A stretch of 42,656 bases of DNA from positions 1-42,656 of the IMG/VR virus record IMGVR_UViG_3300030095_001515; one strand, 5' to 3'. This stretch comes from a virus. Its lineage: Duplodnaviria > Caudoviricetes. Shown here in pieces: positions 17,656 through 42,605 of the stretch (its first letter is position 1; every line of letters starts with the position of its first letter). Position numbers and translations under genes: made by a program. The notes beneath the pieces are model-generated. The model searched no databases, was not told the origin of the DNA, and saw only the letters and a program-made list of their open reading frames with translations.

Positions 17656-19221
17656 ATGGCAATAACTTTTACATCTGCAACTGATAGCAATAGTGTTACT
17701 GTTAATGACACTGACCACGGATCTTTAGTAGGAGATTTTGTAACATTTACTAATGTAAGTACGGGTAATTCTTCTTTGAATACTCAACTAAATAATGAGT
17801 TTTCTATAACATCTATAACTAATGACAATAGTTATGTCATAACTATTCCAAATGATTCTGACGGAGCCACTGTAAATGCTGCTGCTGCTTTGTCCAGTGC
17901 AGGTTCGGCTGATGCAGAATATCAACTTAACGTAGGTATTAACACAGTTGTGCCAGGAGATGGATGGGGTGCTGGAACTTGGGGTGCAGATGGATGGGGT
18001 TCTGCGTCAGCGGAAGATTTTGCTGGTGGTGGCAGTATGCGTCTATGGTCACAAGATAATTTTGGTGAAGATTTAATATTTAATCAAAAAGATGCTTTCG
18101 TTTTTTACTGGGACAAAACTTTAGGAACAAGTGTAAGGGCAAAAAATTTAATCGAATTAGCTGATGCTGCACCAATAAGATCTCGTAAAGTTATTGTTTC
18201 AGAAAGAGATCGTCATGTAATTTGTTTTGGTGCAAATCCAATAGGTGAAACAGTGCAAGACAGATTACTTATTCGTTTTAGTTCACAAGAAAACCCTTTT
18301 TTGTGGACACCTTCTGCTAGAAATACTGCGGGCGATTTAAGAATTGGTTCTGGTTCTGAAATTGTTACTGCCGTAAAAACAAGACGAGAGATGATTGTTT
18401 TAACGGATTCTTCTGTACATAGTATGCAGTTTATAGGACCTCCATTTACATTTGGTATTTCACAACTTGCAAGTGCCATAACTGTTAGAGGATTTAATAG
18501 TGCTGTTGCAATTGGTGATGCTGTTATGTGGATGGGATATGATCGTTTTTACATCTATGATGGTCGTGTTCAAGTAATTCCTTGTTCCGTCAGAGATCAT
18601 GTATTTAGAGATTTTAACGAAACACAATCAGATAAAGTTTACGCTGGAATAAATTCAGCTTTTGGTGAGGTGTTTTGGTTTTATCCATCTGCAACTAATT
18701 CTGGTGCAAATGGTGGAACTGATGAAAATGATAGATATGTTGTATACAATTACGATCAAAAGATTTGGTATGTTGGATCGTTAGCAAGAACATCATGGGT
18801 AGATAGGGGTGTATATCAATATCCAATGGCTACAGATTCTAATCTCGTATATAATCATGAAAAAGGCAATGATAATGATGGCACTGCGTTTACATCATTT
18901 ATTGAATCAAGTCCTATTGATATACAAGATGGCGATCAATTTGTTTTTATTAGAAGAATGATACCTGACGTAAGTTTTGATAATAGCGATGCTACTATTA
19001 GCAATGATAATAAACAAGCAGTGTTTTCATTAAAAGCACAAAGAAGTCCCGCTGGAGGTTTTATCAAAACATCAACAAACGCAGTATCATCCACCACAGA
19101 ACTTAATCACTTGCGATTACGTGGAAGGTCTTTTGGTCTTAGAGTAGAAAGCACAACACAAGGTGTGAACTGGAGGTTTGGCACACCAAGAGTCGATATA
19201 AGATTGGATGGAGATAGATGA
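17656..19221 (+). CDS. tail nozzle/stabilization protein (P22 gp10-like), main part
   Basis: WSQDNFGEDL, IRFSSQE, FIGPPFTFG, EVFWFYPS, RLRGR. Confidence 0.7.
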   Translation: MAITFTSATDSNSVTVNDTDHGSLVGDFVTFTNVSTGNSSLNTQLNNEFSITSITNDNSYVITIPNDSDGATVNAAAALSSAGSADAEYQLNVGINTVVPGDGWGAGTWGADGWGSASAEDFAGGGSMRLWSQDNFGEDLIFNQKDAFVFYWDKTLGTSVRAKNLIELADAAPIRSRKVIVSERDRHVICFGANPIGETVQDRLLIRFSSQENPFLWTPSARNTAGDLRIGSGSEIVTAVKTRREMIVLTDSSVHSMQFIGPPFTFGISQLASAITVRGFNSAVAIGDAVMWMGYDRFYIYDGRVQVIPCSVRDHVFRDFNETQSDKVYAGINSAFGEVFWFYPSATNSGANGGTDENDRYVVYNYDQKIWYVGSLARTSWVDRGVYQYPMATDSNLVYNHEKGNDNDGTAFTSFIESSPIDIQDGDQFVFIRRMIPDVSFDNSDATISNDNKQAVFSLKAQRSPAGGFIKTSTNAVSSTTELNHLRLRGRSFGLRVESTTQGVNWRFGTPRVDIRLDGDR

Positions 19222-26759: not shown

Positions 26760-28648
26760 TAACCTACCTCGCCCCAATCCTTACCTAACTCTTGATCTAC
26801 TTTACTTGGTACGTTAAGTTGTAGTCCTTGCTCCATGATTTCTGTAATCTTATCTGCTTGTTTTTGTGACTCAATACTAAAGCAAAGTTCGTCATGAACT
26901 GTAAGCAGTGGTACTAAACCCTCGTTGTAACAATCAACCATGGCTTTCTTTGTCTGATCTGCCGCACTACCTTGTATCAATCTATTCAATGCTTTATATG
27001 TAAAAGCTCGTCTGATACCTGGACCATATTTCTTTTCGGCCTCTTCTAGTTTGTATGGCTGATTATATCCAAATGTCTTTGGCTCCCACATATCAAACCT
27101 ACAAGATCTGCCTAATACAGTTCTTACCCTACCCATTTTTTGTGCTCTTGCCATAACTTGATCAGCAAGTTGTTTAACAAAAGGGACTTTGCGATGATAT
27201 GTATCAAGTAATAGATTTGCATCTTCTAATTTTATATCTAATGTATTAGCTAATTTTTGTTTACCCATGCCATACATAATACCAAGATTGACTGTCTTAG
27301 CCTCTTTTCTTGATATACTTGCCATGTCTGCAACCATTTGATGAAAGTCTACATCGTCACTTTGATACTGATCAATCATGTTACTGACCAAGGGATTTTC
27401 TTTGTTAACGACTCCACAATAATGAACCAATAACCTTGGCTCTTGACTACTATAATCAAAGCTACCCCACTGTTCTCCATCCTCGGGTATAAATAAACCT
27501 CGAATCATTTTCTTAATCTCTGGATCTCTTGCCGGTATCTGCTGAAGATTTGGATTAGACGAACTAAATCTACCCGTTACAGTGCCACCATCATCGTTAC
27601 GTAGTTGATGCAATTCACAATGTATTCTGCCTTTGTAACTATGTTTAAGTATACTGTCGATAAATGTATTATGTGCTTTATCTAATTCACGAAGTCTCAA
27701 GACCTTTGCTGCAATGGGATGTGGACAGTTTTGTAACCAAGCTTTTGTAAAAGATGCTTGTTTACTTACACTCGTTTCTGAGTAATGAATTTTATGATAA
27801 TCAAATACTTTTGCTACACTTGTTGCTACCCATGGTTCTACATCTATGTTGGTATCATCCTTGATTTCTTTTAGTATTGTCTTTTTCATAGCTAACAATT
27901 TATCTTTAGTTTGCTCGGCCTTATCTAAATCAACTCGTACACCTTTACTTCTCATTTCAAACACACAAGGTATAAGGTTTGTTTCTAATTCAAATATACT
28001 TGATAGTTCTTCTTTATTTATTATGGGTTCAAAATGATTCCATAATCTTAAAGTCAAAGCCGCATCTTGTTCTGCATAGGTCCCTACAAACTGTGATGGT
28101 AATTTCCATAATTCTTTCTTAGGATCTAATCCAAAATCTTTAGCCGCTGACTTTAAAACTTTCTCATCTTTACGTTCGCCCAAGTAATCACGACCTAATG
28201 AATTTAAGGCATAACTAAATCTGTTTTCATTAATAAGCGGAGCAGCAATCATCGTATCTATGATCTTGCCCTTTACGTCCACGTTTGCCCACTTTAACCA
28301 TCCTGCATCATACATAGCATTGTGCATAATCTTGGGTATATGAGGTGTATCCATTTGTTTTCTAAGCCATGAAAATACTTTTTCTTCTGGTATATTCCCA
28401 CCACCTTGGTGCCGAAAGGGATAATATCCCACGAAATCCCCCGCTGCTATAGCTACTCCCACAATAAACCCATCATTACGTGTCCATCCTGGGCCAAGTT
28501 CCAATAAGTTTGGATCACATGTCTCCAAGTCTATAGCTATGTATTTGGAATTAGTGAGGTCTGGAAAAGATTGTGGGACTGTCCACTCCTTTTCTAAAGT
28601 ATTCATCTCCATACGTTCTATAAAACTAATTGTTTTTTTATCTTTCAT
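26759..28648 (-). CDS. polA: DNA polymerase family A with 3'-5' exonuclease
   Basis: IDLET, HNAMYD, YAEQDA; motif A DYSSQEPR, motif B RKEAKTVNLGIMYG, motif C VHDEL; TAATG-coupled start. Confidence 0.95.
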   Translation of the reverse strand: MKDKKTISFIERMEMNTLEKEWTVPQSFPDLTNSKYIAIDLETCDPNLLELGPGWTRNDGFIVGVAIAAGDFVGYYPFRHQGGGNIPEEKVFSWLRKQMDTPHIPKIMHNAMYDAGWLKWANVDVKGKIIDTMIAAPLINENRFSYALNSLGRDYLGERKDEKVLKSAAKDFGLDPKKELWKLPSQFVGTYAEQDAALTLRLWNHFEPIINKEELSSIFELETNLIPCVFEMRSKGVRVDLDKAEQTKDKLLAMKKTILKEIKDDTNIDVEPWVATSVAKVFDYHKIHYSETSVSKQASFTKAWLQNCPHPIAAKVLRLRELDKAHNTFIDSILKHSYKGRIHCELHQLRNDDGGTVTGRFSSSNPNLQQIPARDPEIKKMIRGLFIPEDGEQWGSFDYSSQEPRLLVHYCGVVNKENPLVSNMIDQYQSDDVDFHQMVADMASISRKEAKTVNLGIMYGMGKQKLANTLDIKLEDANLLLDTYHRKVPFVKQLADQVMARAQKMGRVRTVLGRSCRFDMWEPKTFGYNQPYKLEEAEKKYGPGIRRAFTYKALNRLIQGSAADQTKKAMVDCYNEGLVPLLTVHDELCFSIESQKQADKITEIMEQGLQLNVPSKVDQELGKDWGEVG

Positions 28649-29481
28649 TACATACCACACATACCATCACACTCATCTAAGAATGATAGCTGCCCTTTCT
28701 CTTCTGCTGTTTGTAGGTCGGCTTGATCTAAGGGCACTAATGATCTGTGAACAAATTGCTCTCTTTGTTTATCTGTACCTGTAGTTCTTATTTTTTTATC
28801 CACGGCCACCGCATCTTCCCAACCTTGTGGATCGTTATCTCTTAGGTGTCGCCATTCATTATTGTTTTTGTACGGACAGAATGTACAAGCAGATCGTGGT
28901 AAGTACTTCTCGGGATAGTGTTTAGAAAACCAATTCTGACAATCATATCGTTTCATGCCAAGTTCTAATAGTGGCCATCTATTATACAACCATTTATCTC
29001 TAGATTCTTTAACACGTTGTAGTTCATCTTGACTGATACCAATCCATTGCTCAAGTATAACACCTTGTTTTACTTTGTGGTTTTTCTTAACACCAAGTAG
29101 TTCTCTAAACTTTTTCTGTATGGGTTCGATCTTAAACTGTGTAGTGCATTGTCTACGTCCAAAACCATCTTTGACATGGAAGGGGACAACACAATAATTT
29201 TTGTTTGTGCCTCTGATGTTAATGCCTTCAGTAATACTTTTACGTAAATCACCCGCAGTCGTTTGATATATTGGATAAGATAGTTGTGTAGATAGCCACT
29301 CAAGATGTGTATAAACCTCCTCGGGTTCTGATTGTGTGTCAGCAAATACTGCACAATCTGGCTTGGGTGTAATCTCACCTCGTTCAGCCATCAAAGCCAT
29401 AACGGATGATTGTACACCTGCACCTAAACTTATAACCCTCATTGTTGGATTAGGATGTGGTTTAAATAAACTACTTATCAT
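28648..29481 (-). CDS. PAPS reductase-like / adenine nucleotide alpha-hydrolase protein
   Basis: SLGAGVQS PP-loop variant, FADT, RQCT..FKI, RSACTFCPY, ECDGMC. Confidence 0.7.
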   Translation of the reverse strand: MISSLFKPHPNPTMRVISLGAGVQSSVMALMAERGEITPKPDCAVFADTQSEPEEVYTHLEWLSTQLSYPIYQTTAGDLRKSITEGINIRGTNKNYCVVPFHVKDGFGRRQCTTQFKIEPIQKKFRELLGVKKNHKVKQGVILEQWIGISQDELQRVKESRDKWLYNRWPLLELGMKRYDCQNWFSKHYPEKYLPRSACTFCPYKNNNEWRHLRDNDPQGWEDAVAVDKKIRTTGTDKQREQFVHRSLVPLDQADLQTAEEKGQLSFLDECDGMCGM

Positions 29482-36367: not shown

Positions 36368-36568
36368 TTATGACTTTTTGACTCGAATACAATCATCTAA
36401 AATTATCTTTTGATTCTTTGGTAAATTGTAAATTCTATAATTAATCAATCTTAATTCACATTGCTGCCGAGATTCAAACTCCCACTTAAACATGTGTGTT
36501 AAACATTCTTGTTTAGGTTTACCATCAACAAGCCAAACTGTACATATTAATGCCATTGCTTTAAACAT
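36368..36568 (-). CDS. small hypothetical protein
   Basis: MFKAMALIC...FESRQQC..; GGAG RBS. Confidence 0.6.
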   Translation of the reverse strand: MFKAMALICTVWLVDGKPKQECLTHMFKWEFESRQQCELRLINYRIYNLPKNQKIILDDCIRVKKS

Positions 36569-36797
36569 GCCACCAACTCCTCGAACCTTTGCCCTTGATT
36601 GGTTGTGTTTGTTTTAACTTTTTTAAATCCTCTTCAAATTCTTTTATTGATTCGTCAAGGTCCATAACCATATCAAGTCCTAACATAACTCCTTTATATT
36701 CTGCCTCAGATATTTTGTCTCTTGGTGGTTCTACAATTTTTGTGTGTTGTTCATATAAACATCTTAAATGTTCAATTCTCTTTTGTGTAAATGTCAT
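36561..36797 (-). CDS. hypothetical protein
   Basis: AAGGAGG RBS; overlaps neighbours. Confidence 0.65.
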   Translation of the reverse strand: MTFTQKRIEHLRCLYEQHTKIVEPPRDKISEAEYKGVMLGLDMVMDLDESIKEFEEDLKKLKQTQPIKGKGSRSWWHV

Positions 36798-37797
36798 TCA
36801 TTGCCTCCTTTATTGATAATCCTATTTGCATTGCTATTTGTGGTACTATTGCATTACCTAATCCTTTAAGTCTGTCCACCCTTGAGGGTATCCCATAAGC
36901 CACTCGACCCACATTGGGTTCAACGTCCCACCAACTTCTTGCTCGTTCTTCCGCTGATCCGTCTGTACTGCGGTTATCAGATTGACCATGTGATTCTTCT
37001 CTTGCAAGTTCTTCTCGGATCGAGGTCCTCGATTCCCGTCCCAAGCATTTGGTGTTGGCCACATTCTTGTCTCCGCTATCTTTTGTCCCAATGTCGGTGA
37101 TCTCGTCCCGTTCTGAACTGATGGAGGAACCACATTTATCGAATCCTTGTAATCCCTCGCCCTCGGAGTCGGCCATAATGCCATTGTCTTTTCGTCCACT
37201 TGTTCTCGAAGATTGCTCGGTTTTGTTCTGCCCTTGCGATGACCCTCTCGAATCTTTTTTGTCCCCTCCTCCGATCTTGGAGGTAAGTGATCCATCGTGT
37301 TCGGTGTTGCCCACAATCCAGAGTCGATCACGCTTGTGGGGTGCATTAATGCCACAAGCCGGAACAATAAACGTTTGTGTGGCGTAGCCTTCCAATGCCA
37401 TTTCGTGTAACACTTGGTCGAGACCCATGGTAACGTGACCATAAACGTTTTCGAAAACACACCAAGTCGGGCGTTTCCTTTTAACAATCTCATACACGTA
37501 AGGCCAGATGTTTCTCTCATCTTCCTCGCCTCTTCGTTGTCCCGCAACGCTGAATGGCTGACATGGGTATCCAGATGTAAGGATGTCATGGTCGGGAATA
37601 GTTCGGGTTGATTCGGGTCGGGCATTAACTAACTCCTTTACGTCATTAAAGATCGGGATGTTCGGGAAATTCTTCGCCAGGACTCTCTGACAATACGGGT
37701 CTATCTCACAAAAAGCAACGGGATTTGAGAGTGCTGCCCAACGAAAACCGAGGGAAAATCCCCCGATCCCCGAACAGACATCAAAGTGCCTAAGCAC
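36772..37797 (-). CDS. C5 cytosine DNA methyltransferase, alpha chain
   Basis: Motif I DVCSGIGG, IV GYPCQPFS, VI FENV, VIII HKRDRLW, X LGNAIVP; motif IX absent in this frame. Confidence 0.9.
   Translation of the reverse strand: MLRHFDVCSGIGGFSLGFRWAALSNPVAFCEIDPYCQRVLAKNFPNIPIFNDVKELVNARPESTRTIPDHDILTSGYPCQPFSVAGQRRGEEDERNIWPYVYEIVKRKRPTWCVFENVYGHVTMGLDQVLHEMALEGYATQTFIVPACGINAPHKRDRLWIVGNTEHDGSLTSKIGGGDKKDSRGSSQGQNKTEQSSRTSGRKDNGIMADSEGEGLQGFDKCGSSISSERDEITDIGTKDSGDKNVANTKCLGRESRTSIREELAREESHGQSDNRSTDGSAEERARSWWDVEPNVGRVAYGIPSRVDRLKGLGNAIVPQIAMQIGLSIKEAMNDIYTKEN
36858..37625 (-). CDS. nested alternative-frame MTase beta chain (TRD-like repeats plus motif IX)
   Basis: Own AAGGAG RBS 7 nt upstream; three W(A/P)TP repeats; LNPMWVEWLMGYPQGWT. 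Confidence 0.8.
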   Translation of the reverse strand: MPDPNQPELFPTMTSLHLDTHVSHSALRDNEEARKMRETSGLTCMRLLKGNARLGVFSKTFMVTLPWVSTKCYTKWHWKATPHKRLLFRLVALMHPTSVIDSGLWATPNTMDHLPPRSEEGTKKIREGHRKGRTKPSNLREQVDEKTMALWPTPRARDYKDSINVVPPSVQNGTRSPTLGQKIAETRMWPTPNAWDGNRGPRSEKNLQEKNHMVNLITAVQTDQRKNEQEVGGTLNPMWVEWLMGYPQGWTDLKD

Positions 37798-38297
37798 TAT
37801 ACTCCCCTTTGAATCTTAGACCATGCAATATTTAATCGGTCATAATTAAATGGAACGTTGCGACTCTTCATCATTAGCATTGCTTTTTCCATTGTTACAA
37901 TTGCCTCATGAAATGTCATCTGCTCATCTAACTTTGTGAGTTTGTAAACTCGATCCATGACCCTTGGATCATGACCACCCACATGCCACTCAATTGGATC
38001 AGTCCAAACACTACTCTTTTCATAGTTAACTTTCCAATCGTAAATGGTTGCAAGTAATCCATCCTCAAATTCAATTAGCCATTGATATCGGGTGTCCTTG
38101 TTCTCAGTTTCATCAGACCAAGGTAAATATTCATTCTTGATCGGTGTGCCAAATAACTCTGTTAGTTGAGTAAATGATAATCCTTTAAATGATCCGAAAA
38201 AATGTGTGCCGACCATTTTGTTTAATACAATATCCCGACTTAAAGATTGTTGGAGTGGGACATAATTAAACGATTGTAATTCTATAATTTGATTCAT
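37797..38297 (-). CDS. hypothetical phage protein
   Basis: W.IEF.DG..ATIYDWK...WHVGG; GGAGG RBS. Confidence 0.7.
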   Translation of the reverse strand: MNQIIELQSFNYVPLQQSLSRDIVLNKMVGTHFFGSFKGLSFTQLTELFGTPIKNEYLPWSDETENKDTRYQWLIEFEDGLLATIYDWKVNYEKSSVWTDPIEWHVGGHDPRVMDRVYKLTKLDEQMTFHEAIVTMEKAMLMMKSRNVPFNYDRLNIAWSKIQRGV

Positions 38298-38481
38298 TTA
38301 TACCTCCATTGTCATTATAAAAAATTGATCCATTGCCATTGCAAGTTTTACAGTTCAATAAGTTATGTTGTGTGGGAGTATAACCATGACCCCCACACTC
38401 ATAACATCGAACTTCGATGTAAGGCTCTTTTCCACTAGGGATCACGAACCTTGCATCTTCAGTTTCAAATATTACTTTCAT
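38266..38481 (-). CDS. small Zn-finger protein (DnaJ-type CxxCxGxG)
   Basis: CYECGGHG, CKTCNGNG. Confidence 0.65.
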   Translation of the reverse strand: MKVIFETEDARFVIPSGKEPYIEVRCYECGGHGYTPTQHNLLNCKTCNGNGSIFYNDNGGINESNYRITIV

Positions 38482-38487
38482 GATAAC

Positions 38488-38928
38488 TTACCACGATGCT
38501 TGATAATAGACATATCTAGGATGCATAAATAAATTACACTCCTTGATCATCTTCTCGCCCTCTTGCAAAAAAGTCTTTGCTCTTTCAAAAGTTGAAATGG
38601 CATTAGCCTTTTCTTCTTTTCCGTAATATCCAAACTCCGTGGAATTACCGAAGAAAAAACCCGAATGATCTTTGACTAATTTATCTTCACGAATTGCCAT
38701 GATAATCTTATCTAAATCATCTTCAGATAATTCTATCTTCTGACATTCATCAATACCCTTAGCAAAAGTATTAACAATATAACCATGCAAATCTGCATGT
38801 TTTCTCCAATAACCAAGATCAACGTTCATTGATTCGATATCATATTTATCGTCTAATTTTGGTCTCGGGACATCATCCTTATAAGCAGTATTATAATGAT
38901 GACCTATTAAGTTCATATCTAAACCCAT
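38488..38928 (-). CDS. early phage protein
   Basis: MGLDM...YWRKH...GFFFG...YYQASW; GGAGGT RBS. Confidence 0.75.
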   Translation of the reverse strand: MGLDMNLIGHHYNTAYKDDVPRPKLDDKYDIESMNVDLGYWRKHADLHGYIVNTFAKGIDECQKIELSEDDLDKIIMAIREDKLVKDHSGFFFGNSTEFGYYGKEEKANAISTFERAKTFLQEGEKMIKECNLFMHPRYVYYQASW

Positions 38929-39011
38929 AATTTACCTCCATTGGTTAGGTTAGTTAGTTTGTCATATGTAGTATTATATAATATGTAAATGGAAAAGTAC
39001 AACACTAAAAT

Positions 39012-39046
39012 AAAAAAAGAGCCAGAAAATTAATTCTAGCTCTTTT
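39012..39046 (-). terminator. Rho-independent terminator (possibly bidirectional)
   Basis: GAGCUAGAA/UUCUGGCUC stem plus U7 on minus strand. Confidence 0.8.
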
Positions 39047-39099
39047 CCTAACCAAAACTGCATAAGTGTATTTGACAATTACATGGAGGTTATGCAGAT
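39012..39099 (-). ncRNA. candidate c4/CI-like antisense sRNA
   Basis: Upstream promoter; CUGCAUAA/UUAUGCAG stem with bulged CCUCC; UUGGUUAGG linker; terminator. Confidence 0.55.
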
Positions 39100-39105
39100 G
39101 GTATC

Positions 39106-39134
39106 TTTTTATCTTCTTCAAGATTGTTGGTCAA
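39106..39134 (-). promoter_or_regulatory. sigma70-like promoter for the candidate sRNA
   Basis: TTGACC-17-TAAAAA. Confidence 0.5.
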
Positions 39135-39343
39135 GTCCGTGTCTGTAAATAGTAGGTTTGATTTTCTTCCTCATCCCCCACATAAATTTCTTTAAAATTT
39201 AAAGACAGTCCAAAATCATATCCTTGTTTATAGTAGGCAGATGATTTTCTTATATCATCCATCTGCCCATGTATTAAAGCATCGTAAACTCCATCCTTAA
39301 AGTAAGCTAAATAACCTTGTCTTCTTTTTTCACTAGGATGCAT
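39131..39343 (-). CDS. hypothetical early protein
   Basis: Start MHPSEK; YFKDGVYDA...YYKQGYDFG. Confidence 0.6.
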   Translation of the reverse strand: MHPSEKRRQGYLAYFKDGVYDALIHGQMDDIRKSSAYYKQGYDFGLSLNFKEIYVGDEEENQTYYLQTRT

Positions 39344-39542
39344 TATCTTTTCTCCATTCCTCTTCCGATTCAAATATAAAACCATCGCCAATGGTGGCAT
39401 AATCAAACCACCCATGACCCTCACTAACTCCATCTAAAAAAGCATTTAGTTCGTTTTCAGTTTTAAATCGATAAGTTCTTAATGGATTATCATTTTGATA
39501 ATTTCTTTCGCCCCATGCTATTGTTACTGAATGTTTCAACAT
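39333..39542 (-). CDS. hypothetical early protein
   Basis: YRFKTENELNAFLDGV.E..GW. Confidence 0.65.
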   Translation of the reverse strand: MLKHSVTIAWGERNYQNDNPLRTYRFKTENELNAFLDGVSEGHGWFDYATIGDGFIFESEEEWRKDNAS

Positions 39543-39937
39543 AATTCTGCATCGAAGTGGCATTGACCTCGCTCCTTGATACAATCATGAATTTTATTTC
39601 CAAGGTCTAATCTTGCATACCATTCAAGATAAAACATGACACCCTTTTCAGTATAACTTTTTTTGGTTTTCTTATTTAAAAAGTCGGCTAACATTTGTTC
39701 GTTGTATCCTTTTTCTCCATCGGTATTAAAGAAATCATCTAAATGTTTTTTATAATCGCCTAAACAATTTTCACAGTTCTTAATACCCTCTTTGACTTTT
39801 GGTAAATCTCCATCGTCAAAATAATATTCTAGCGTCTCGGGTCTTTGTCCCTCGACACCAAAATAATCGGCATCGTCACTCGATTGAACTGCAAACCAAA
39901 ATTTGCCCTCAATGTCTCCATTGTAATATCTACCCAT
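39536..39937 (-). CDS. hypothetical early protein
   Basis: MGRYYNGDIEGKFWFAVQSSDDA. Confidence 0.7.
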   Translation of the reverse strand: MGRYYNGDIEGKFWFAVQSSDDADYFGVEGQRPETLEYYFDDGDLPKVKEGIKNCENCLGDYKKHLDDFFNTDGEKGYNEQMLADFLNKKTKKSYTEKGVMFYLEWYARLDLGNKIHDCIKERGQCHFDAELC

Positions 39938-40040
39938 TTTTTTCTTCCTCTCTACATTCATAACAAATTTCTCGACCATCATAAGGTGGTTCGTCTAAAT
40001 GGAATTTTTTATCGCAATCCCAACATTCATACTCGCCCAT
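39930..40040 (-). CDS. small Zn-ribbon protein
   Basis: CWDC...CYEC; GAGGAG RBS. Confidence 0.6.
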   Translation of the reverse strand: MGEYECWDCDKKFHLDEPPYDGREICYECREEEKNG

Positions 40041-40257
40041 TTCTATTCTCCTCAGCATAATTAGATTGATGTTCATTCCATGCATCAAATAATTCGGAAT
40101 AAATTTCTTGATCACTCATCGGTCGCATTAAATGAAAATGCTCAGTCATTTTAGATACGAACTCAATTCGCCTTTCACATTGAAAGATGGTCGATAATGC
40201 TATGTCCCAAAATCTTTCTTCTTGATCCATGATCATTTGTTTTACTTTACCCATCAT
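40027..40257 (-). CDS. hypothetical early protein
   Basis: GGAGG RBS; MMGKVKQM. Confidence 0.6.
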   Translation of the reverse strand: MMGKVKQMIMDQEERFWDIALSTIFQCERRIEFVSKMTEHFHLMRPMSDQEIYSELFDAWNEHQSNYAEENRNGRV

Positions 40258-40492
40258 TATCCTCCAATAAAAATTCATGCTTGAGTTTCCAAAAACTAGT
40301 TTCTAAATTTCTTATGTCTGATAAATAAAGATCATCTATTTCTTTGATGTTTTGTAAAACCTCGCCAATAATTTTATGTGTGTTTTGAATTGTTATTAAC
40401 TGATCTTGTGTAAGAGAATTCATCGCTCTCATTTTTTTTTGCATAGCAATAGATGCTTTTTTCAAAGCAATTTCTTTATCTTTTTTAGACAT
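40247..40492 (-). CDS. hypothetical early protein
   Basis: GGGAG RBS; start MSKKDK. Confidence 0.6.
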   Translation of the reverse strand: MSKKDKEIALKKASIAMQKKMRAMNSLTQDQLITIQNTHKIIGEVLQNIKEIDDLYLSDIRNLETSFWKLKHEFLLEDNDG

Positions 40493-40646
40493 TATTTGAC
40501 TCCCATGTTTGTTTAATATCTTGTTTAAAATTTTGTTGAGTATATGACCCATTGGCTAACTCAGTTAATATTTCTATCATCTCAGTTTGTGCCATATCCG
40601 ATCCTAGCCAAAACTTAACTTGCTCCATGGTTAATTGTTCAGACAT
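40485..40646 (-). CDS. hypothetical early protein (53 aa)
   Basis: AGGAG RBS; MSEQLTMEQVKFWLGSD...; fills gap; not in ORF track. Confidence 0.6.
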   Translation of the reverse strand: MSEQLTMEQVKFWLGSDMAQTEMIEILTELANGSYTQQNFKQDIKQTWESNNV

Positions 40647-40836
40647 TTTTTTCTCCTAATATTTCATTACCTTTACATAAAAAATTAACGCAACATTCTC
40701 CAAAAAGTTTATGTGCTTTGATCTCGTTCATTTCTCCCTCATCATAGAGTTCGAAAATTTCGTTAACTCTTCCATAAAGATCGTCAATGCTCATAACCAT
40801 TTTAGTTCTTTGTGATTTTGAAATTGTCTTAGACAT
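40639..40836 (-). CDS. hypothetical early protein
   Basis: GAGGGAG RBS; overlapping gene chain. Confidence 0.6.
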   Translation of the reverse strand: MSKTISKSQRTKMVMSIDDLYGRVNEIFELYDEGEMNEIKAHKLFGECCVNFLCKGNEILGEKNV

Positions 40837-41032
40837 CTTTTGACTCCCTCAATAAATGTTGTGCATAAAAAGTTCTGATGTCATTAATCTTATTATAAAG
40901 ACTAAAAACATATTCATACTCTTTTGTATTTCGATTAACTTTGGAAACTCGGCCATCTAACCAAGTTTCCATATCGCCAAGTTTCATGTCCTCTGCTTTT
41001 TGAGAACATTTTAATAATAAATCTTCAGACAT
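40829..41032 (-). CDS. hypothetical early protein
   Basis: Overlapping gene chain. Confidence 0.6.
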   Translation of the reverse strand: MSEDLLLKCSQKAEDMKLGDMETWLDGRVSKVNRNTKEYEYVFSLYNKINDIRTFYAQHLLRESKDV

Positions 41033-41402
41033 AATAAATTTTACCCCCTATTAATTTCTCACATAAAACTTTCATCTGTTTATATGTAATGTCATCATTG
41101 CAAGTAAATCCATGCTCCTCGGAAAAATATTCGTTAAATGATCGCTTGTCATTTACAAGATGCTCATTCCATAATTCCATGATCTTTGTCTCATCGGGTT
41201 TACTCTTCTCATATTCATGATCCTCGGCACGATTCCAAACTCGACTAAATCGTTTAAGCCATTTTATTTGATTGTTGGAAATCTTTTTTCTGCCACAACG
41301 ACCATCGAATATTAAATCATCGGCACTAGGTAATGGAGAGATGCCATGAGCATCCCCCCACTTGTTATAAATCTCAACTAATTGATCTATCCTACTCATC
41401 AT
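41025..41402 (-). CDS. hypothetical early protein
   Basis: AAGGAG RBS; ATGA coupling. Confidence 0.65.
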   Translation of the reverse strand: MMSRIDQLVEIYNKWGDAHGISPLPSADDLIFDGRCGRKKISNNQIKWLKRFSRVWNRAEDHEYEKSKPDETKIMELWNEHLVNDKRSFNEYFSEEHGFTCNDDITYKQMKVLCEKLIGGKIYYV

Positions 41403-41890
41403 GCATACTCCTTATATAATTTAAGAGCATCTTCAAAAGGCATGAAGTTCAAACACTTTGCTTTTGGATGTCTATTTCTTAAAACTGATTTAAACTCATC
41501 TTCGTCATACCCTCTAGGCTTTTTGTAGGCAAAAAGTTCCTTATCTTCTTGGCATAAAAACTTAGTAGTTAAATCTTTTTTAAGAGTTTTACTATCAAGC
41601 CAATCATATAATTTGTCATGACAAAAAGACTCAAGATCATAATCATAGTAATGTGTTTCTCCACCACTTTGAAATGATCCCTTTGGAAAATTGTCCTTGA
41701 TCCATGAATTAACTTTATCAACTTCTTTCCAAGAATAATCTCCATAACTATTTTGACGATCACTACCACCATGACCATCATTGCCCACATCAATCATTTT
41801 CTTACCATCAACATAAACAATTGCATTATAACAAGGTGTCTCTTGTGATCCTTGTTTGTAGTAAGTTATATTTTTAAGTTCTAATTTCAT
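41399..41890 (-). CDS. hypothetical early protein
   Basis: Start MKLELKNI; SQETPCY.A..Y.DGK...NDGHGG. Confidence 0.7.
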   Translation of the reverse strand: MKLELKNITYYKQGSQETPCYNAIVYVDGKKMIDVGNDGHGGSDRQNSYGDYSWKEVDKVNSWIKDNFPKGSFQSGGETHYYDYDLESFCHDKLYDWLDSKTLKKDLTTKFLCQEDKELFAYKKPRGYDEDEFKSVLRNRHPKAKCLNFMPFEDALKLYKEYA

Positions 41891-41891
41891 T

Positions 41892-42059
41892 TTACACATC
41901 TCCCTTTGCATATATTTTTTCTGCATCTTGATAGTTTTCCATTTTTTCAATTGATAAAACATCTTTGTATCCTTTTTTCTCTAGGATTTTTTTCATGGAA
42001 AGAGCCTCGTTATAAGTCTCATAATATCCATAAACTCCGTAACAAAATAAAACGTACAT
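41892..42059 (-). CDS. hypothetical early protein (55 aa)
   Basis: GGAGGT RBS; TAATG coupling; MYVLFCYGVYGYYETYNEALSMKK...; not in ORF track. Confidence 0.6.
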   Translation of the reverse strand: MYVLFCYGVYGYYETYNEALSMKKILEKKGYKDVLSIEKMENYQDAEKIYAKGDV

Positions 42060-42373
42060 TATTTACCTCCATAGTTTTTTACAAAATTTAGAATTTCATT
42101 CCAATCATTACTGTTAAAAAGGTCGTTACCCTCTCCATATTCTTCTGCAATAATGATTGCATATTTATTTTCAAATCCCTCAAGTTTCTTTGTCTCTTCA
42201 TCCATTACAAAAATTTGTAATCCATTAGGACTTGCGAAACTCGGACAAACATCATTTTTATAAGAACAAGTATCCCATTCATGAGGAATGGAAACATCAA
42301 TCTTAATGCTTGGATGTGTGACCTTTGGATCAGTATAATAGTTTTCTGAAAAGTCTTTGTTTTTTAAAGTCAT
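42059..42373 (-). CDS. hypothetical early protein
   Basis: W...SYKNDVCPSF; GGAG RBS favours ATG 42373. Confidence 0.65.
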   Translation of the reverse strand: MTLKNKDFSENYYTDPKVTHPSIKIDVSIPHEWDTCSYKNDVCPSFASPNGLQIFVMDEETKKLEGFENKYAIIIAEEYGEGNDLFNSNDWNEILNFVKNYGGK

Positions 42374-42443
42374 AATTTTCTCCATGTAATTAACTTTAAT
42401 TAACCCTACCATAATACTACATAGGACACAAGCCTTAATGTTG

Positions 42444-42605
42444 TGTCACACTTATAACAGTATTTTGAAAGAAATTACTTTTATAAAAAAAGTTTCAAAT
42501 ATAGTGTGACAAGTGTGACAAGTGTGACTAACCACATTGTAACCTATGTATAGAGTCAAAAAACCATGTCACACTTCTCTTCAAATTTGTCACACTTGTC
42601 ACACT
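42444..42605. repeat. direct and inverted 9-bp repeats AGTGTGACA/TGTCACACT (7 copies)
   Basis: Forward x3 tandem at 42503-42529 (third copy ends in T); reverse at 42444-52, 42567-75, 42588-96, 42597-605; AT-rich non-coding context. Confidence 0.85.

Follow-up and report, generated by a model that had tools for sequence, protein, structure and literature searches.

A candidate trans-acting small RNA with an anti-Shine-Dalgarno seed in the putative early region of a podovirus-like phage

What does a short non-coding unit with a predicted promoter and terminator of its own do directly ahead of a putatively early phage gene whose ribosome binding site (RBS) it could cover? This question is raised by the minus strand of a linear virus record (IMG/VR IMGVR_UViG_3300030095_001515; Caudoviricetes; CheckV completeness 73%), the whole of which, 42,656 nucleotides, is referred to here as the window. 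An earlier note, made from the letters of the DNA, had proposed that this unit encodes an RNA of about 88 nt, related to the c4 RNA of P1 and the CI RNA of P4, which regulates early genes by two-part pairing and which might serve as an immunity switch or as a type I antitoxin-like RNA. The riboregulator itself, with an anti-Shine-Dalgarno (SD) segment and a second segment, has gained support from conservation, predicted accessibility, additional targets, and one covariation event. The family relationship and the two suggested roles have fared less well (see below). We regard a trans-acting shut-off of early translation as the probable function of the RNA.

Because the DNA polymerase is 46 to 54% identical to the polymerases of 023Pt_psg01, DSL-LC04, HTVC023P, and HTVC027P, and because primase, two helicases, and capsid and tail genes are also encoded, the window appears to be a podovirus-like phage, kin of the HTVC023P type. 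The element sits within a run of short uncharacterized genes (36368-42373), a block that would be early, judging from its position, the type of its genes, and its repeated sigma70-type promoters. Features of the element and of its predicted pairing sites are collected in Table 1.

Table 1. Positions of the element, its parts, and its predicted pairing sites in the window
Feature	Position	Strand	Remarks
Promoter-hairpin-tail-terminator unit	39134-39012	minus	non-coding
P1, -35 hexamer TTGACC	39129..39134	minus	predicted sRNA promoter; invariant in 14/14 carriers among the matches listed
P1, -10 hexamer TAAAAA	39106..39111	minus	17 nt after -35; TATAAC in the diverged clade
Predicted 88-nt small RNA	39012..39099	minus	putative start, 7 nt after -10
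5' hairpin	39058..39097	minus	outer stem 39097-90 with 39065-58, plus inner stem and loop
Seed 1, anti-SD segment ACCUCCAU	39083..39090	minus	CCUCCA predicted unpaired; C to U in type C
Seed 2, GUAAUUGUC	39074..39082	minus	lengthens predicted pairing at T2, T4, and T5 (T5 in relatives)
Seed 3, single-stranded tail	39047..39059	minus	UUGGUUAGG (39055-47) pairs T1, AGUUUU pairs T3
Intrinsic terminator hairpin and U-tract	39012..39046	minus	listed by terminator scan
P2, candidate promoter of downstream operon	38973..39002	minus	putative; TTGTAC 39002-38997, 18 nt, TATAAT 38978-73
P4, candidate promoter of first early operon	42403..42431	minus	putative; TTGTGT, 17 nt, TAGGGT
T1, 16-nt site over SD of 146-aa gene	38934..38949	minus	rank 1 of 66 start regions
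T1 gene, 146 aa	38488..38928	minus	first gene of second early operon
T2, 13-nt site over SD of 166-aa gene (37797-38297)	38302..38314	minus	seeds 1 and 2
T3, 14-nt site over SD, first early operon gene 2 (41892-42059)	42065..42078	minus	seeds 1 and 3
T4, 12-nt perfect site over SD, first early gene (42059-42373)	42380..42391	minus	seeds 1 and 2

The outline of the unit given in the earlier note holds: both promoter hexamers and their spacing are found where it had placed them, and the terminator was listed independently by the scan. It had overlooked P2, a second candidate promoter between the terminator and the leader of the next gene. Neither P1 nor P2 reaches the threshold of the consensus promoter scan, and it is conservation that argues for P1 as a promoter. 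The 88-mer has a predicted folding energy of -26.0 kcal/mol (z -4.6; none of 200 shuffles as low), with much of this z coming from the terminator; the 5' hairpin alone gives z -1.9, a value reached by 9 of 200 shuffles, while the type C form of the element (see below) gives z -3.05 (2/200 shuffles). Within the predicted fold, CCUCCA (39089-84) and the first eight bases of the tail have unpaired probabilities of 0.93 to 0.99. The bulged anti-SD and the single-stranded tail segment of the earlier note lie at its coordinates, with predicted unpaired parts that are shorter than it supposed. The A and the U that flank CCUCCA are predicted within stems, and the last three tail bases are partly bound to the U-tract (predicted unpaired 0.53, 0.20, and 0.03).

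The element is kept in at least 14 contigs of uncultured marine phages, the window and at least 13 others, despite turnover of the genes upstream. The carriers were collected by protein and pattern scans and by profile searches of loci; besides the window, which is of type A, at least three carry type A, at least seven type B, and at least three type C, a count that omits duplicate contigs and L231, identical to the window across the element. Conservation begins at the -35 hexamer, beyond which the upstream genes differ. Among the matches listed, the 17-nt length of the promoter spacer is shared by 14 of 14 carriers, and the -10 hexamer reads TAAAAA in 10, TAAAAG in 1, and TATAAC in 3. In six pairs of carriers of different type, the sequence of this spacer is 35 to 59% identical and that of the RNA 88 to 94%, with 66 to 75% identity at third codon positions of the next gene. 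T never occurs at the last -10 position of P1. Because T is present there in the other early promoters, P1 would be weaker than these. Many alphaproteobacterial promoters are likewise described as being without this T, in the pertinent part of PMC7703639.

In types B and C, an A is missing from one arm of the stem and a T from the other; apart from this, the 5' stem, modelled with 11 pairs, is invariant. Seed 2 shows no change across the 10 aligned rows, and the last G of the tail is an A in 2 of 14 carriers among the matches listed, with the loss of one pair. In the terminator, 13 pairs are 100% paired in nine distinct rows and three pairs vary, never being broken. Structural covariation was not above the shuffle control (259 of 500 shuffles), and the 5' stem has no covarying base substitutions.

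In this analysis the element is confined to one clade, and the cultured pelagiphages checked gave no match. It is absent upstream of more distant homologues of the T1 gene (L003-L008, L237, and L240-L249). An RNA model recovered the window and L393, and found nothing above 27 bits beyond the known carriers in 44 sources, which include about 45 to 47 kb each of the cultured pelagiphages HTVC023P, HTVC027P, and 023Pt_psg01; with five related records, in a run that had no positive control, it gave 0/5 matches. The GenBank phage collection holds no similar DNA. Loose pattern scans, which picked out at least 120 and at least 59 loci, gave mostly chance matches, with profile fits restricted to the known carriers. 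When G010 and the first 30 kb of HTVC023P, HTVC027P, and 023Pt_psg01 were searched for RNAs of an analogous kind, only antisense or U-rich stretches came up. As an aside, the leader of a distant phage gene family (L012, L023, and L026) has the 16-nt core of T1 behind a strong promoter; a copy of the RNA was not found in these records.

The leader of the T1 gene, at 38949-34, is complementary to both RNA segments in the correct order, as the earlier note had claimed; one leader A is common to both segments, and the site therefore spans 16 nt rather than 17. By complementarity the segments are 7 + 9 nt at T1, 6 + 7 at T2, and 8 + 6 at T3, and a complementarity of 16 to 17 nt at T1 is retained in types B and C. 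The copies of the 8-mer at the RBSs at 38302-09 and 42065-72, also listed in that note, are confirmed; a fourth copy, at 18438, is antisense within a gene. T4 and the second seeds at T2 and T3 had been overlooked. A further site, T5, lies in relatives at the very start of a leader, the gene of which is past the end of the window, and its 11 nt are identical in the 8 of 8 carriers that reach this far, ahead of two different genes. Two antisense matches to the RNA inside late genes are as long as or longer than the 12 nt of T4.

The T1 gene has 421 homologues and belongs to a widespread phage family; most of the homologues at 70 to 85% are in ENA assemblies. Searches of Pfam, PHROG, Atlas, and PDB folds gave no name for its function; its structure model is confident, with no PDB match at E<=0.001 and with six BFVD matches at that threshold, none having a named function. 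In G004 (L009:4001-4425) the T1 gene is broken after about 56 to 60 codons, which may be an assembly error.

To what extent do these sites exceed chance? Targets were scored as Watson-Crick pairing between two RNA segments and a single contiguous site, computed for every called start region, a score chosen post hoc. In the window, the first four of 66 start regions are T1 (16 nt), T3 (14), T2 (13), and T4 (12). In the related contig G001, 8 of 92 start regions reach at least 12 nt, and 8/8 are within the early region, on both strands. The hypergeometric probability of this early-region enrichment is 0.003 for the window and 3e-5 for G001, values that ignore the shared ancestry of the leaders: because the early leaders share one cassette, the targets are not independent. 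Shuffled RNAs that retained the anti-SD core and were free to take their best sites anywhere matched the best single score in 5/300 (window), 3/200 (G001), and 1/300 (G002) cases, and reached the top-4 sum in 1/300, 0/200, and 0/300, respectively. Predicted RNAduplex energies on the fixed targets were better than those of 150/150 shuffles; the control in which shuffles could bind best anywhere was not beaten (67, 22, and 45 of 150 shuffles). When real sequence of both strands was scanned, the element took first place in G001, G002, and G004, for each of which a 20-kb piece of the early region was used. In the window it tied for fourth to sixth place, with three stretches scoring higher and two equal, and it is the sole fully non-coding stretch among the window's top six.

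The cassette in question, an early promoter/leader motif (ACTACATA.GAC core), follows P2. It occurs on both strands, with 2 to 5 copies per contig, in the window (38960-38977 and 42411-42428) and in G001-G009. A promoter of the P4 type, with TAnnnT 17 nt from TTGTGT, is present in 9 of 9 sequences compared. Two opposed promoters overlap at 42403-42431; the divergent one, at 42411, has the cassette motif, and its gene, which in G001 is that of the terminase small subunit, is not among the sites of at least 12 nt.

Comparison of the RNA types provides a further view of the pairing. The type C RNA has AUCUCC in place of ACCUCC, a C to U change in the anti-SD. The SD of T1 is GGAGG in 11/11 of types A and B and GGAGA in 3/3 of type C; GGAGG is found at T2 in 6/8 versus 0/2 and at T3 in 7/8 versus 0/3, respectively. 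For T2, and for T3 in G003, the difference is a single base within an otherwise matching site. The SD of T4 is GGAGA in 10 of 10, and therefore the altered RNA gains a pair there. In type C, 16 nt are still paired at T1 with a shifted junction (5 + 11), and T4 changes from seeds 1 and 2 to seeds 1 and 3 with 14 to 15 nt retained. Cross-folding at T1 gave -13.2 for the type C leader with its cognate RNA versus -10.0 and -10.8, and for the A and B leaders -8.4 to -12.1 with the cognate RNA versus -6.5 and -8.3. The cognate RNA is preferred at T3 as well, and no cognate preference is seen at T2.

In a tree of the T1 protein (18 rows; G004, with its frameshifted T1, is left out), type C is one clade with support 98/96, and therefore the covariation counts as one event. 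Two mosaic genomes break it. G004 has a type B RNA yet GGAGA at T2 and T3; it is likely a recombinant, since it shares 96% identity with G002 in the T2 protein. In L233, T2 and two pairs at T1 are gone. Among the other carriers, G008 has lost one T1 pair, and T3 of G002 and G009 is reduced to 6 and 9 nt. Moreover, GGAGG is used at 1/22, 0/17, and 0/6 sites overall in the type C contigs, relative to 13/41, 8/20, and 6/14 in the contigs compared and 9/33 in the window. Given so few GGAGG sites overall, drift has to be reckoned with as an alternative source of the SD changes in type C. One non-target orthologue retains GGAGG and four more non-target GGAG sites retain the fifth base, in what is a small sample. 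The covariation that the earlier note had suggested looking for in related phages is hence present as one clade-level event, with two contradicting genomes and a T2 site without preference.

How would such an RNA act? P1 would be one source of it. The first early operon, whose transcript from P4 would terminate at the sRNA terminator, may be another, with the RNA forming the 3' end of that transcript. An exposed seed, either the anti-SD bulge or the tail, would nucleate pairing, upon which the weak 5' hairpin would open; the geometry suggests that full two-segment pairing needs this opening. The anti-SD together with one of the two specificity seeds would cover 12 to 17 nt across the SD. As the RNA accumulates after entry, ribosome loading on the lead cistrons of early operons would be blocked. 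Because the targets are mostly first cistrons behind early promoters, the outcome would be a delayed negative feedback that damps early protein synthesis and ends the early phase. The same pairing would silence T1 in cis in transcripts that read through the terminator. The P2 leader is predicted to be bound with a net energy of -10 to -13 kcal/mol. For types A and B, the T1 SD has a predicted unpaired probability of 0.0 both in trans and in the read-through transcript; in the type C model, the tail is paired beside the T1 SD, which is left partly open. T3-T5 are located 1 to 5 kb upstream and further sites are on the opposite strand, positions that are hard to reconcile with cis hairpins and that point to action in trans.

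With its predicted promoter and terminator and its short predicted RBS pairing with several mRNAs, the element fits the general class of trans-encoded base-pairing sRNAs. A wider model, for which we put the chances somewhat below even, is that the RNA is a modular master switch that ends the early phase of a lytic-type marine podovirus. It would combine a common anti-SD seed with two interchangeable specificity seeds, act on first cistrons in most early operons on both strands, with leaders that co-evolve and swap seeds, and would have originated when the phage's early promoter/leader cassette was copied in inverted orientation.

A role in cis alone would also suit T1, the top-ranking site, which is 100 nt downstream. 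The first early operon would then have the element as its 3' end, read-through RNA would sequester the T1 SD (buried fully according to the predictions for types A and B), transcripts from P2 would be translated, and the remaining matches would be by-products of similar leaders. Phage T4 provides a precedent: long transcripts of genes e, soc, 49, and I-TevI bury the SD and transcripts from nearer promoters do not, according to the part of PMC3014915 on these genes. The T4 leader hairpins resemble read-through into T1; they are, however, purely cis, with one gene each and no terminator between the arms. Here, a strong terminator separates the two halves, P1 is conserved independently, and seed 2 is invariant although unused by T1. 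The T2-T5 matches and the co-change would go unexplained, and we consider this cis-only role unlikely. A DNA-level explanation dispenses with RNA pairing altogether. The reverse complement of the element resembles the cassette ahead of several early genes, and other early leaders, taken antisense, score almost equally against the same targets; the element might accordingly be an inverted cassette copy, a protein-binding site or a leftover by the terminator. This is improbable in view of the antisense-direction promoter, the paired stem indel, and the 88 to 94% identity, and in view of the T1, T2, and T3 segments, which are contiguous in the target and 4 to 27 nt apart in the element, an arrangement that suits RNA pairing. 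The inverted cassette copy is likely the origin of the element rather than its function.

Shut-off of early translation in trans, which we prefer, has to be set against other uses of the same pairing. A type I toxin-antitoxin system is directed at a single small hydrophobic toxic peptide. The small RNA adjoins a gene whose SD it covers, and it might in this respect be an antitoxin against the 146-aa protein; the T1-T4 products, however, are 55 to 166 aa without a hydrophobic segment (maximum KD19 0.20-0.67), the targets are several, and T1 homologues exist without the RNA (e.g., L237), so that such an antitoxin is very improbable. Alternatively, the RNA could persist in a carrier state and silence incoming or resident early genes, serving immunity, superinfection exclusion, or a lysis/dormancy switch as c4 and CI do. 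The pairing mode, an anti-SD and a specificity segment, resembles that of c4 (as outlined in the c4 section of PMC5320573), silencing of first early cistrons would block kin phage, and the T1 operon of G001 has an inserted HTH transcription regulator gene (L372:11426-11812) that is absent from the window. On the other hand, tyrosine or serine integrase and resolvase domains (PF00589, PF00239) had no matches in 5/5 incomplete records, including one at 92% completeness, the scanned proteins contain neither an antirepressor nor an icd-like gene product, the element had 0 matches in bacterial genome contigs, and the nearest cultured relatives are described as lytic in the relevant part of PMC12753301. 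We rate this role as a minor prospect. The two roles raised in the earlier note are thus both weak: the integrase searches were negative, and the predicted targets do not encode hydrophobic peptides. Lastly, GGAGG is followed by ATG on the plus strand, and the conserved bases could be the SD and start codon of a small ORF there. This is scarcely credible: by carrier the length is 16, 4, 0-2, or 32-36 codons, and the consensus scan lists no plus-strand promoter here. With such inconsistent lengths and no conserved peptide, the ORF was rejected.

Is the element a member of the c4/CI family, as the earlier note had it? No Rfam family reached its gathering level in the window. At E<=10, region 38700-39400 had 12 matches, none of them to c4; the best, STnc430, scored 27.4 bits against a cut-off of 47 and covered mostly the terminator. 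With no Rfam match, no three-stem fold, and a terminator of its own, the element falls outside the family; its mode of action is c4-like, yet it is not a c4/CI member. The P4 CI RNA is a short phage RNA with two-part pairing with nearby sequences. It is processed from the transcript that it controls and brings about premature termination for immunity, its targets being in the leader of its own transcript, whereas the sites of the element are the SDs of separate operons. The P4 CI RNA is taken up in the RNase P passage of PMC5499578.

In c4 of P1 and P7, one segment covers the RBS and a second, just upstream, confers specificity; the RNA has three stem-loops, is cut by RNase P from a longer transcript, and controls icd-ant, lysogeny, and immunity (see the sections on c4 in PMC5320573, PMC12197685, and PMC8198154). 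The element resembles it in being about 80 to 90 nt long, phage-encoded, and upstream of its target, and in its predicted two-segment complementarity, one over the RBS and the other just upstream. Unlike c4, with its three stem-loops and seeds in loops, the element is modelled as one bulged hairpin followed by a single-stranded tail and its own terminator. It has three seeds used in differing pairs and no fewer than four predicted targets, spread over two or more operons, and in contrast to icd-ant in a temperate phage, no antirepressor or integrase was found among the proteins and records scanned. This anatomy suggests that the RNA is a primary transcript, unlike the RNase P-processed c4.

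An anti-SD seed aimed at several mRNAs is shared with the alphaproteobacterial ar14/cuckoo RNAs (NfeR1), which silence in trans over the RBS through an exposed seed and which are chromosomal, with repeated hairpins carrying an identical CCUCCUCCC loop (as described for these RNAs in PMC10746234). The element differs from them in its single CCUCCA bulge and distinct helper seeds, in that the phage's own genes are targeted, and in having no Rfam match. SviR of the phage satellite PLE is also similar by description: it belongs to a mobile element, acts in trans, and has distinct seed regions and several targets, its own operons among them (the portion on SviR in bioRxiv 10.1101/2022.04.08.487710). 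SviR, however, is satellite-encoded and partly aimed at another phage.

Phage RNAs that regulate the phage's own genes mostly act on one gene and are mostly from temperate phages, according to the overview part of PMC12197685. A description of such an RNA from these phages did not come up in the literature consulted, which was mostly open and included most of the main text of PMC12197685; a word search of PMC12753301 gave 0 matches for sRNA, noncoding, and antisense. The natural allele pairs (types A and B versus C), the named seeds, and four sites in the window constitute an exact and cheap test system. The element would also mark co-regulated genes among uncharacterized ones, and an inverted leader copy suggests a simple route for the origin of such RNAs.

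Several other features of these phages were observed. A DNA methyltransferase gene (36772-37797; 341 aa; PHROG 363) is overlapped, in another frame of the same strand, by a 255-aa ORF with its own SD (36858-37625), and both are present in G001 and G006 too. PHROG matches at 28648-29481 and 979-1608 are to phosphoadenosine phosphosulfate reductase and ferredoxin-labelled families. In G001, a gene of the HlyC acyltransferase family (L370:616-1023) is located ahead of the terminase large subunit region. Past the end of the window lies the gene for the terminase small subunit, named in G001; its long leader has inverted arrays of a 9-nt unit (42444-42605). This unit varies among relatives, and both arms co-vary in the window, G001, G002/G003, G004, and G005/G009; the arrays are a candidate packaging or replication site or a long RNA hairpin.
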